Below are positions 12,001 through 18,000 of a stretch of DNA of 64,000 nucleotides, piece after piece. The stretch is from Escherichia coli (GTDB taxonomy: Bacteria > Pseudomonadota > Gammaproteobacteria > Enterobacterales > Enterobacteriaceae): NCBI RefSeq assembly GCF_036507355.1, contig NZ_AP027877.1. The stretch is one strand, 5' to 3'. The position numbers are program-made. Within the stretch, counting starts at the first letter, position 1. Every line of letters begins with the position of its first letter.

Positions 12001-15000
12001 TGATCGTTTAGGTGAGCTGGCGATTGTTAAGCGTCGCACTGGTGGCTATGACGGACGCGGTCAATGGCGTTTACGCGCCGATGAAACCGAACAGTTACCG
12101 GAAGAGTGTTACGGCGAATGTATTGTCGAGCAAGGCATTAACTTCTCTGGTGAAGTATCGCTGGTTGGCGCGCGCGGCTTTGATGGCAGCACCGTGTTTT
12201 ATCCGCTGACGCATAACCTGCATCAGGACGGTATTTTGCGCACCAGCGTCGCTTTCCCGCAGGCCAATGCGCAGCAGCAAGCGCAAGCCGAAGAGATGCT
12301 TTCGGCGATTATGCAGGAGCTGGGCTATGTGGGCGTGATGGCGATGGAGTGTTTTGTCACCCCGCAAGGTCTGCTGATCAACGAACTGGCTCCGCGTGTG
12401 CATAACAGCGGTCACTGGACACAAAACGGTGCCAGCATCAGCCAGTTTGAGCTGCATCTGCGGGCGATTACCGCTCTGCCGTTACCGCAACCGATAGTGA
12501 ATAGTCCGTCGGTGATGATCAACCTGATTGGTAGCGATGTGAATTATGACTGGCTGAAACTGCCGCTGGTGCATCTGCACTGGTACGACAAAGAAGTCCG
12601 TCCGGGGCGTAAAGTGGGGCATCTGAATTTAACCGACAGCGACACATCGCGTCTGACCGCGACGCTGGAAGCCTTAATCCCGCTGCTGCCGTCAGAGTAT
12701 GCCAGCGGCGTGATGTGGGCGCAGAGCAAGTTCAGTTAAGCAGGTGCTCATTTGATTGCCGGATGCGGCGTAAACGCCTTATCCAGCCTACCGATCCGGC
12801 ACCCATTGTAGGCCTGATAAGATGCGTCAAGCGTCGCATCAGGCATTGTGCGCCAATTGCCGGATGCGGCACCAATTGTAGGCCTGATAAGACGCGTCAA
12901 GCGTCGCATCAGGCATTGTGCGCCAATTGCCGGATGCGGCACCAATTGTAGGCCTGATAAGACGCGTCAAGCGTCGCATCAGGCACAAATGTCTAATGCC
13001 TACAACTACAGCGAAATACAGGTCCCCGCTTCGCCCGCCAGCGTCTCTTCAATCCGCGATAACGCCCCAATCCACGCGGGTTTACCACGGCTTCTGACAT
13101 AACCACTCACCGCCGTTACCTTCGGCCCCATCGAACCATCGGCTTTGGCAAATGGCGCTAACTCATCCGGTGTGGCATGGCGAATGGCACGTTGCTGCGG
13201 CGTTCCCCAGTTTTCATATACCGCATCAGCATCGGTGAGGATCACCAGTCCATCGGCGTTAATTTGCTCGGCGAGCAACGCAGCGGCGAGATCTTTATCA
13301 ATCACTGCTTCACTCCCTGCTCCGTCATCCGTCACAGGCACACCGCCGCCGCCACTGCAAATCACCACATGCCCCTCTTTGAGCAACAACTCGATGGCTT
13401 CGCTGTCGAGAATTTTACGCGGTTGCGGAGACGCCACCACCCGGCGTAAATATTTACCATCACGTTTCATCTGCCAGCCGTAAGCCGCTTCCAGTGCCTC
13501 TTGTTCTTCTGGCTGATAAACCGGACCAATAAATTTCTCTGGCTGCAAAAACGCCGGATCATCAGGCGAAACCTCAATGCGCGTCAGCACCGTCGTCACG
13601 GGCGGCATCTGCGGCTGTGCGCTCAAACTCTGCGCCAGCATATAGCCAATCATCCCCTGACTTTCTGCCACCAGCACATCCAGCGGATACGGTTCTACCT
13701 CTTTCCACGCCAGATTCTGCAATGCCAGCAGCCCCACCTGCGGCCCGTTGCCGTGAACAATCGCCAGCCGATAAGAACGGGCCAGGCGCGCCAGCGCGGG
13801 TACAGCACTGGCGATATTGCGATATTGATTTTCTGCCGTCAGCGCCTCACCGCGCTGAAGCAAGGCATTGCCCCCAAGAGCTACAACCAGTATTTTCATG
13901 GTTTTCCTTGTAATAATTGTTGACCAAGCCAGAACCCCAGCAGTGTATCTGCCCCTGACGTATGCCCCAGCGCCAGCAGCGAATCAATCGCAACAGCGGT
14001 ACGTTTCGGGCAACTCAGAGCATGAACAAAGTGCAGGAGTGGCGAGGCGAAATATCCTTGCGCGGCATAACGTAAATAACTGACGCTCACCGCTGTGGTA
14101 ACGAGTTGCAGATTGTCGGAACAGGCAAAAAACGGACGACCGGAGCGCGCATCTAAAGCGCCATAATACCAGGCCGCCAGCAGCATTCCGCTCAGCGTGT
14201 CATCATGACTCGGCGTTAATCCGGGGCCTTTACCCAGCCAGTGTCGCCAGTCGGTCTTAACGCCATTGAGCGCGGCCTGAAAACAGTGACGAAACTGGCG
14301 TAACTCAGCAGGCAGCGGATCGCTTGCCGCCAACGCCAGTGGCCCGAAAAGCCCGGTTTCCTCCGCGCGTTGCATCCATGCAGCTGCAAGTGGTTGAGGA
14401 TGCGCAGGCGGCGTAATACGCAGCAAACAATAACGCTGTGGCTGTTTAACCGTGAAACGCCCGAGGCGAATCCCTTGAGCCACAACCTGTGGTCGTTCAT
14501 TGCCGCATAATCCACCGCATAACGCATCGAATTGCGCACGGCGAAGCACCCATCCTCCGGGGCCGAAACCACTACCCTGACGATGCAGCGTTAACAGTTC
14601 GCCGCTTTCCGTCATCAGGTTAATCGCCCGCCGCCACACTCCCGCTAACCGCCAGGACTGGCGATAATTCGGTGCGCTACTACTGGCAAGCAGAGGATGG
14701 ATGATCGTCATTGCGCGTTCCTCAACCAATACCCATGCTTTCAGCCAGTGCTTCCAGCGCCTGTTCAAAACACGCCAGCGGTGCCCGCACAGTGCCTGCG
14801 CCAATCTGCCCGATCCCCGCCTCTTTATGGGCGATACCGGTATTGATGAGTGGCGTAATGCCGGTTTCTACCACGCGACGAATGTCCAGTCCCAGGCACG
14901 CGCCCTGAAAATCCCAGCTTGGGATCTGCAACTGCATATTGCGTTCAAGGTAAATTTCCGCCATCTCTTCAGATACCGCCCTGGCCGCTTCCATGCCACC

Positions 15001-18000
15001 CGCACCGACAAAGCGCGTTACGCCAGGCGCTGCGATCATTGCCGCACCTCCGATACCAAAGGTTTCGGTAATCGCGCTATCGCCCATATCCGGGTTCGCC
15101 TGCTCCTGCGAGAAGCCGGTGAAAAACAGACCTTGCGGAGTGTTTACAGGCGCAGTAAACCAGCGTTCGCCCAGCCCGCTTACCCGAATCCCGAACATAT
15201 TGCCGTTGCGGGTCATTGCCGTGACGATGCTGCCTGCGCGGATCATCGCGCCAGCATCCATCGCCGCCTTGCAGTAAGCCATCGCGAGGTTGAGGAAGAA
15301 CTGATCGGTCACGCTGAGGAAATCCATCACTTCCGCGATGTGCTGTTTATCATGATCGAGGCGAGCAATTTGTGGGGCCAGCGCACGCATTAACAGTGCT
15401 GAGGAAGCAATATTGCGTTGATGGAACTCATCGCCCATCGTAATGCCCTGCGCCATCATCGCGGTAAGATCGATACCGCGCTCCATGCGCCCCAGCGCCG
15501 CGCTTAATACTGGCATTAACACATCGCGCATCCAGCGATGGCGAGTCAGGACATCTTCGCCGTAAGCGCCAAAACGCATCACTTTGCCGATACCTTCGTT
15601 GAGGTTGCAGTACGCCCGGTTGCCGTCGGTCACATTCTCGACCACCAGCATTGGCATACTGGCAGAAGTAATGCCGCCCATTGGCCCGACGGCATTCACA
15701 TGGTGACAAGGAATGAAGTTCACTTCCCCCTGCTCCAGTATTGCCAGCGCCTGCGCTTCATCTTTCGCCCAACCTTCCAACAGACATGCGCCCACGCACG
15801 CCCCTTTCATGGGTCCGGTCATCTCCTGCCAGCGCATTGGCGGCCCGGCGTGAAGCAGTGTTTTGCCCTGGTTTAGTTCGCTGATAAGTGAAGAAGCCGG
15901 TTGCACATCCAGCCAGTGTGGACGAGCGCGACGAATTTGTTCGATAACCGCAGCATTGGCTTGCGCCACTGATGTAAACATGGGAACCCCTTATTGCAAA
16001 CGTTCTAATAAACGAGCCAGTTTTTTATTGCCGCCGGCGACTGGCGACCATTGGTAATGCACAACCGGTTTGCTGGCGCTTTGTAGCTCCAGCGCAAAAC
16101 TGCGTAATCCGATGTTAATCACGGCGACGTTTTCCAGTAATGACGGTGTGTGTTGCTGTGCGGCAGGCGAGAGCGGATGAATTAACGCTGCCGCCAGCAA
16201 GGTGGCTTCCGGCAGCGAACTCACTACCGCGATCCCCGCATCTTCCAGCGTGGCGATTTGCTGCGAGCGGCATTGCGGGTCACGTTCAGTGCCTGTCACC
16301 GTGGCAATGGCATACAGTGGTTGATTGTCTGAACGCGCAGCACAGGCTTTTTGCCAGGCGCTTACCAGCGAGGCGGCAGGATCGGCAGTCGCACCGAAGC
16401 CAATCACGACATCAAGCAGCAGCACACGCACTTGCGGTTTAGCGCCGAGATCGGCAATTAACTGGTTGCGTAAGGTTGGGTCGATCATCGGATGGGGACG
16501 CCCGACGGTGTAGAAATCATCGCCGAGGTCAATAATCTGGTGGCCATCGGCGTCCAGCATCATGCCGTGATGATGGGCATCATCGGCTTCCACGCCAAGG
16601 TGTCCGGCAAGTAATCCCGCCGCTTCGGCAGCCAGCGTACCGCCGGTATACAAACCGCAAATAAATCCGCTGCTGGCAGGCGTTATCGCGTTACGTCGCG
16701 CCGTAACGCGTGAAAGCAGGCAAGCCAGGCGTGCGGCCTCATCCAGCGAGGAGGCAAACCAGACATTCTCGTCGCGGGCCACCGCCGGGGTATAACCTAA
16801 AAACAGCGCCACCGTCGGTTTGCCGGTTGCTTTCATGGCATTAACAATTTTCAGACGCACCGCTTCGGCAGGTGGTTTTGAAACAAATGCCAGCACTTCG
16901 CTTTTCTCGTCTGCACTGAGCATTTCCAGCGCTGTTAGCGCACTGATGCCGCCCACTTCACGGCTGAGGTCGCGCCCGCCAAGGCCAATCGCGTGAGTAA
17001 TTCCCTCCCCTGCCAGCGCAATCTGCGAACACAGCTCCTGAATCCCGGTACCGGAAGCGCCAATGACGCCAATATTGCCTTCCGGCATCACGTTAGCAAA
17101 AGCCAGCGGCGTGGCGGCAATCATCGACGTACCGCAGTCCGGCCCCATCACCAGCAAGCCTTTTTCTCGCGCGCGGGTTTTAAGTTGGATTTCATCTTCC
17201 AGCGTGACGTTATCGGAGAACATCATCACGTTGAGGTTGCGATCCAGCGCCTGATTCGCCAGCTCCGCCGCATACTCGCCAGCCACTGAAATCAGCGCCA
17301 GATTGGCATCGGGTAATTTCTGACAGGCACTGTCCCAGCGACGCACCTGCGTCAAGGACTGGCTGCTGCCTGACCCCTGCGCCAGTTGTTTTAGCGCCTC
17401 TTCAAGCTGCTGCATAATCGCCTGCGCGATCCCCGCATCCGCCGCTTCGCTACGAATTGCCACGCAAATATCGTTCGGCGTGGCGTTATTAAAATCGTCA
17501 TGCCAGAAACCTGTGGTATCTAATAACGCTTTATTGGCGGGCGTACCCATCATTACGGAAACATCATCAACATTTTCTGATTCGCTGAGTTTTCGTGAAA
17601 TAATCATTAAACTGACCGAATCCTGAAAACACCCTTTTTTAATAAAGGCGTGGATCATAACAACTCCTTAAAAATTGCACCCATGGCAATTGCACGAGCA
17701 GTGTTAATGTGGCGATTACGGTATCGATGACAACGGGTAAATAAGGTGATGAATATCACACAGGGATTATTAACAAAAGAATTCAAATAACCGCCATGCT
17801 ATTACGTGTTATTTTTTAATAAGCGTGGTTGTTTTAAAAACCAGGTTAAAAGAGAGCGGATTATCAAATAAATTCTAACTATATTTTTTTGCCTGTCTGG
17901 ATCACATAATCCAGATATTTTCCCTGTATGTTAATTGCAGTCATGCTTCACACCGTCGTTAAAAAGGAAGACAGATGAAAATCAGTCGGGAAACACTCCA

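Follow-up and report, generated by a model that had tools for sequence, protein, structure and literature searches.

We analyzed a 64,000-nt stretch of Escherichia coli DNA (contig NZ_AP027877.1 of assembly GCF_036507355.1), in the following called the window, whose numbering is used for all gene positions. The segment 13006-17658 is exactly the coding extent of four genes on the minus strand, allF, allG, allH and allK (Table 1). No internal stops occur in the translations of allF, allG and allH, and the frames are intact. The genes are tightly packed, with 9 bp between allF and allG, 10 bp between allG and allH, and a 4-bp overlap (ATGA) of the allH stop codon with the allK start codon. An ATGA overlap is the usual mark of translational coupling. 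The frames and distances bear out the original prediction, made from the sequence alone, of four co-oriented, closely spaced genes. That prediction had also let the genes “follow” allDCE, which is not the case: allD is located at 17975..19024 on the plus strand, and the allF unit and allDCE are divergent, with one control region of 316 bp in common. The divergence of the two units is also stated in the literature (PMC12535856). On both flanks, the locus is syntenic with K-12 MG1655, with allD on one side and purK on the other. For allH, ATG 14711 was taken as the start codon, since it is preceded by a GAGGA Shine-Dalgarno sequence and agrees with the start in RefSeq and in K-12. A frame of 302 aa beginning at TTG 14804, proposed by the mechanical open reading frame (ORF) list, was rejected as an over-extension.

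Table 1. Positions of the four genes, their control region and the adjoining repeat array in the window (REP/BIME, repetitive extragenic palindrome/bacterial interspersed mosaic element; distances are from the allF ATG).
Feature	Position	Strand	Length	Remarks
allF (fdrA)	17658..15991	minus	555 aa	uninterrupted frame (ORF listing and translation)
allG (ylbE)	15981..14722	minus	419 aa	uninterrupted frame (ORF listing and translation)
allH (ylbF)	14711..13896	minus	271 aa	uninterrupted frame (ORF listing and translation)
allK (ybcF)	13899..13006	minus	297 aa	uninterrupted frame (ORF listing and translation)
allF-allD control region	17659..17974		316 bp	shared; length equal to MG1655
Counterpart of the AllS-bound fragment	17802..17861	minus	60 bp	-203/-144; six substitutions (-195, -183, -169, -150 to -148)
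Counterpart of the phosphorylated-ArcA-bound fragment	17741..17800	minus	60 bp	-142/-83; three substitutions (-139, -135, -107)
REP/BIME array	12740..13005		three tandem 70-bp units	purK/allK convergent spacer; one REP-type hairpin in each unit

Family models were consulted for all four products, and the Pfam models for AllG and AllH as well as the NCBIfam models for FdrA and carbamate kinase exceed their curated cut-offs in the window proteins. AllF is the largest of the three subunits of oxamic transcarbamylase (OXTCase) and consists of a module resembling the alpha subunit of succinyl-CoA synthetase (SCS) followed by a second domain of CoA-ligase type (Pfam PF02629, CoA_binding, and PF00549, Ligase_CoA). 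It reaches 1045 bits with NF004760 (FdrA) and matches PDB entry 3DMY, named “Protein fdrA”. AllG belongs to PF06545 (“Oxamate carbamoyltransferase subunit AllG”, previously DUF1116; E = 8e-98) and has a homolog of solved structure (PDB 3CLQ, E = 5.5e-111), and AllH belongs to PF11392, the corresponding AllH subunit family that was previously called DUF2877; further weak Pfam matches at E <= 10 were not found in either protein. The last gene had been predicted to encode a carbamate-kinase homolog, and AllK indeed reaches 618.6 bits with the carbamate kinase equivalog NF006926 (cutoff 416) and 425.3 bits with TIGR00746 (arcC; cutoff 358.25), in line with the kinetics of the K-12 enzyme (PMC9843812). 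The RefSeq product names “acyl-CoA synthetase FdrA”, “DUF1116” and “DUF2877” trail behind both the literature and Pfam. The FdrA-family, PF06545 and PF11392 genes are adjacent, stand in the order F-G-H and are orthologous to the MG1655 proteins.

Of 5426 complete E. coli genomes, 5423 contain the 4.65-kb block, whose genes are annotated there as fdrA, ylbE, ylbF and ybcF. Its top match is strain TB06052 (99.5%), and the majority of the genomes show 95-99%. In ungapped alignments with MG1655, 547 of 555 residues are identical in AllF (b0518; eight changes), 417 of 419 in AllG (YlbE of NC_000913.3, b4572/b0519), all 271 in AllH (b0520) and 295 of 297 in AllK (b0521). The codon changes between the two strains comprise 51 synonymous and 12 non-synonymous ones. 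Because of this excess of synonymous changes and the near-universal conservation, the comparison indicates that the four frames are real genes under purifying selection, and chance ORFs are excluded. Gene set, gene order, spacing, neighbors and the 316-bp control region are all as in MG1655; the differences are allelic only, namely 64 nucleotides, 12 amino acids, 10 substitutions in the control region and the number of REP/BIME units. Judged by its sequence, the window carries an intact operon at 98.6-100% protein identity to the characterized K-12 genes. We are therefore nearly certain that the locus is the usual allFGHK operon of E. coli, which is the final transcription unit in the allantoin cluster, and none of the analyses made contradicted this identification. 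The operon and its function are already known, and the window only contributes a further ordinary allele of an operon that belongs to the E. coli core.

A special status had been suggested for ylbE (allG), which was predicted to be intact here and frameshifted in the K-12 reference, so that this allele would be a better template for functional tests. The first part stands, as the frame of 419 codons is uninterrupted in the window. The second part holds for a superseded version of the MG1655 sequence and for W3110, but not for the current MG1655 record, in which ylbE (b4572 in NC_000913.3) is an intact coding sequence of 1260 bp. The RefSeq record of W3110 (NC_007779.1; 2582-3840 of the compared stretch) still annotates ylbE as “frameshifted”. 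In a three-way alignment, this record deviates from ylbE of MG1655 version 3 by two differences only: a silent GAG>GAA exchange at nt 114 and a run of five G at nt 252-256 shortened to four, while the window and MG1655 version 3 both have five. Accordingly, the alignment to K-12 which had been proposed as a check reveals no frameshift against NC_000913.3 and one G fewer in the W3110 record. A sequencing error was named in 2012 as the probable cause of the old frameshift, and in another study, the frameshift change is said to have “restored an intact ancestral gene”. In a sample spread across 5420 genomes, the ylbE span is exactly 1260 bp in all 39 full-length matches. We conclude that outdated records have given K-12 an artefactual “ylbE pseudogene”. 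The idea of a special allele was rejected, since ylbE is intact in all sampled genomes and also in MG1655, and the notion of a better template fails as well: the MG1655 protein is intact and almost the same as that of the window, and the published active enzyme came from a clone of MG1655 genomic DNA (PMC11326118).

Published data on activity, kinetics, co-transcription and regulation were obtained with the near-identical K-12 genes and proteins. OXTCase (EC 2.1.3.5) had for some 60 years been a “global orphan” among enzymes and was solved in 2024. The original prediction, which considered it to be still without an assigned gene, is therefore outdated in this respect: the CanOE study of 2012 named fdrA, ylbE and ylbF as candidate genes of the orphan oxamate carbamoyltransferase and ybcF as that of the carbamate kinase (PMC3364942), and the enzyme was established experimentally in 2024 (PMC11326118). 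The assignment itself, fdrA, ylbE and ylbF as the oxamate transcarbamylase of the anaerobic allantoin branch, was correct (PMC11326118). Kim et al. (2021) reported that allantoin induces fdrA anaerobically and that oxamate is absent in a ΔfdrA strain (PMC8550087). In the work of Kim and Kim (2022), purified YbcF (AllK) was characterized as a catabolic carbamate kinase with a Km for carbamoyl phosphate of 0.47 mM, and the four genes were found on a single transcript by reverse transcription PCR (PMC9843812). Kim and Kim (2024) detected no oxamate in ΔallF and ΔallG mutants and 1.2 mM in ΔallH, while the wild type produced 17.7 mM; a triple allFGH mutant was fully rescued only by all three genes (PMC11326118). 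Thus, the deletion test suggested for this locus is already in the literature, and single as well as triple deletions stop or nearly stop oxamate production in anaerobic cultures on allantoin. The same is true of the suggested co-expression and activity assay, in which the K-12 proteins were active: purified AllF-AllG-AllH converts oxamate and carbamoyl phosphate to oxalurate, with Km values of 1.3 mM (carbamoyl phosphate) and 36.9 mM (oxamate; PMC11326118).

In the resulting pathway, the promoter in the allD-allF control region would be activated by AllS and ArcA when allantoin serves as nitrogen source under anaerobic conditions. AllD, encoded by the adjoining gene, would oxidize ureidoglycolate to oxalurate, and AllF, AllG and AllH would together act as OXTCase (oxalurate + Pi <-> oxamate + carbamoyl phosphate). 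AllK would then use carbamoyl phosphate and ADP to form ATP and carbamate, which would decay to NH3 and CO2. The net gain of the cell would be extra ammonia and one ATP, with oxamate being excreted.

A different assignment of roles within the operon has been suggested by annotation, according to which FdrA is an acyl-CoA synthetase or an oxamate:CoA ligase and the transcarbamylase is formed by YlbF and/or YlbE alone. The CoA-ligase domains PF00549 and PF02629, the NCBIfam name “acyl-CoA synthetase FdrA”, the RefSeq product names and the argument of the CanOE study (PMC3364942) point in this direction. However, a ΔfdrA strain loses the production of oxamate and not its consumption, all three genes are required, and activity was found in the purified preparation of the three proteins (PMC11326118). 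Furthermore, AllF scores only 53.8 bits with the SCS-alpha (SucD) family model NF004230, well below the cutoff of 336, and the phosphohistidine loop (GHAGA), which SCS-type ligases require, is absent from it. SCS activity was not detected for FdrA/AllF (PMC8550087). The ligase assignment is, hence, largely refuted already, and we regard it as extremely improbable.

The control region is 96.8% identical to that of MG1655 in an ungapped alignment, with ten substitutions at -195, -183, -169, -150 to -148, -139, -135, -107 and -78 from the allF ATG. In K-12, an allF'-'lacZ fusion needs anaerobiosis, allantoin, AllS and ArcA for expression (Kim and Kim, 2025; PMC12535856). Its anaerobic activity in the presence of allantoin is about 4000 Miller units, as against about 100 in ΔallS or ΔarcA strains, and both AllS and ArcA bind the K-12 control region in electrophoretic mobility shift assays (EMSA; PMC12535856). 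The coordinates of the bound fragments were carried over to the window from the legend of Fig. 6 in PMC12535856 via the ungapped K-12 alignment (Table 1). When the region was scanned for promoters and terminators, shuffled controls produced more matches than the region itself, and the scan was not used as evidence. As a side observation, the sole sigma-70-like consensus matches lie at 17872-17934 on the minus strand of the window (-276..-248 and -241..-214 relative to the start codon of allF), close to a published in silico prediction at -271. Both matches lie farther upstream than the sites of AllS and ArcA (-181 to -117), an unusual arrangement for activators.

Some points can be raised against the identification. 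The published assay ran in the reverse direction only, as oxalurate was unavailable, allG supplied on a plasmid gave no recovery of oxamate in ΔallG, and allFG or allGH alone led to 7-16% of wild-type oxamate (PMC11326118). Additionally, nine of the ten control-region substitutions fall within the two EMSA fragments (17741-17861). One could thus suppose that the operon is functionally altered or silent here, through its 12 amino acid changes or through the substitutions overlapping the AllS and ArcA fragments; eight of the changes are in AllF, a protein in which a single exchange is known to alter flux (D296Y, a gain-of-function variant with faster oxamate formation; PMC8550087). However, residue 296 of AllF is the wild-type Asp in the window and not the Tyr of that variant, AllH is identical to its K-12 counterpart, all frames are intact and the substitutions are mainly synonymous. 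The control-region haplotype is common: it is identical in TB06052, and 1791 E. coli records carry it with an identity of >= 99%, with K-12 among the more distant haplotypes. From this distribution, it is a common natural variant that gives no reason to expect unusual regulation. An altered or silent operon is, therefore, very unlikely, and the ordinary allFGHK operon remains the identification used below.

How OXTCase achieves carbamoyl transfer can be approached through AllF. Residues 118-288 of AllF align with residues 66-236 of SucD (hhalign probability 97%), with the motifs SGT and GxGG(D) inside the aligned part, and phmmer matches AllF to many SCS-alpha chains. The AllF-SucD alignments stop at SucD 236-238, just before the KRMGHAGAII loop of SucD. 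Opposite this phosphohistidine loop, AllF has the short segment GYTPAVARDENVWF, which lacks a histidine and contains D296, the site of the D296Y exchange. A Pfam search at E <= 10 detected no ATP-grasp family in AllF. Since AllF has an SCS-alpha scaffold lacking the phosphohistidine loop and no detected ATP-grasp domain, OXTCase probably works by direct phosphorolysis of the carbamoyl-N bond, by analogy with SCS. AllF would be derived from an SCS-alpha scaffold that lost the phosphohistidine loop; the carbamoyl-N bond of oxalurate would be cleaved directly by phosphate, as in succinyl-CoA + Pi -> succinyl phosphate, and the nucleotide step would be handed to a separate kinase, AllK. By the same analogy, AllF would share with the superfamily of SucD and the ADP-forming acyl-CoA synthetases the phosphorolytic formation of an acyl (here carbamoyl) phosphate. 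In contrast to SucD, it has no phosphohistidine loop, neither an ATP-grasp domain nor a partner with one was detected, and its score with the family model is far below the cutoff. The literature establishes the net reaction, the need for all three genes and the link to AllK, whereas the mechanistic suggestions of the 2024 authors came from AlphaFold and docking only (PMC11326118). Our proposal holds for the K-12 enzyme just as well, and nothing in it is specific to the window.

The mechanistic part is weak: the second domain of AllF (336-491) showed no demonstrable similarity to SCS beta. Smith-Waterman comparisons of this domain gave z = -0.7 with SucC and z = 1.1 with SucD relative to shuffles, a profile of AllF and YahF reached an hhalign probability of 0.1% with SucC, and a phmmer search of the C-terminal half of AllF against PDB returned only 3DMY itself. 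An interpretation of AllF as an SCS “alpha-beta fusion” was consequently dropped, and only the Pfam assignment of the second domain to PF00549 was kept. For AllH, no resembling solved structure was found. Its invariant residues form the motifs GxGxGLTPxxDD and GHTSGAD in a helical domain, and the conservation of this glycine-rich motif and of GHTSGAD makes them candidate ligand-binding elements.

The classical transcarbamylases, i.e., aspartate transcarbamylase (ATCase; PyrB), ornithine transcarbamylase (OTCase; ArgF/ArgI) and YgeW, catalyze the same type of reaction, in which a carbamoyl group passes between phosphate and an accepting nitrogen. Nevertheless, they have no sequence similarity to AllF, AllG or AllH, and no OTCase/ATCase domains (OTCase_N or OTCase_C) were detected in the three proteins by Pfam at E <= 10. 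OXTCase also has three kinds of subunits, whereas the classical enzymes have one or two (PMC11326118). A closer relative exists in K-12 itself, in which yahE-yahF-yahG...yahI (b0319-b0323; 335925-341115 in NC_000913.3) form a paralogous set of the same four families: YahE is a DUF2877 protein (25% identity to AllH), YahF is of FdrA type (37% to AllF), YahG is a DUF1116 protein (45% to AllG) and YahI is carbamate-kinase-like (38% to AllK). The motifs G(R/K)PHPMIDP of AllF and GLTPSxDD of AllH are kept in the yah paralogs. The cassette differs from the all operon in its order (E-F-G instead of F-G-H) and in its neighbors, the amidohydrolase gene yahJ and the LysR-type gene yahB; it lies outside the allantoin cluster and is absent from the window. 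Going by these similarities, it may encode a second enzyme of the AllFGH type. Taking these comparisons together, we tentatively propose, as a possibility with the odds against it, that AllFGH is a third kind of transcarbamylase, in which AllF would provide a loop-less SCS-alpha scaffold, AllH a fold without a solved relative that carries the GxGxGLTPxxDD and GHTSGAD motifs, and AllG a third essential subunit, with direct phosphorolysis proceeding without a covalent intermediate; yahEFG-yahI would then be a second such enzyme acting on another N-carbamoyl substrate.

Downstream of allK, the REP/BIME array (Table 1) probably represents the 3' end of the allFGHK transcript. The number of its 70-bp units is polymorphic, with three in the window, two in MG1655 and one in TB06052. 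Elsewhere in the allantoin cluster, the spacer between allE and glxK contains a match to the Rfam small RNA STnc480 (21084-21150, minus strand; 87.1 bits with a gathering threshold of 72).

Further observations concern other parts of the window. The region 4195-6525 has the order envY, tRNA-Arg(UCU) (5002-5078), the insertion sequence IS1 (approx. 5530-6297, with a terminal repeat at 6275-6297) and folD. The same layout between envY and folD is present in strain HCP6S3_I2, in which a truncated response-regulator gene (fimZ-like) lies beside IS1. The fimbrial genes flanking folD in TB06052 are absent from the window, which looks like an IS1-associated deletion, and the envY-IS1-folD junction was matched over at least 80% of its length in only 98 genomes. 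An AgrB match from Rfam is located at 34170-34258 (minus strand) and falls into the type I toxin-antitoxin region agrB/dinQ, which lies between selU/mnmH and ybbP; the agrB/dinQ spacer carries an IS200 insertion in TB06052 and none in the window. Finally, a giant BapA/SiiE-like adhesin gene (49771-64000, minus strand) adjoins a type I secretion system (46433-49767) and runs past the window end. It is broken by an in-frame stop at 61877-61879 and a frameshift at approx. 53489-53550, and its counterpart in TB06052 is annotated as a pseudogene, too.

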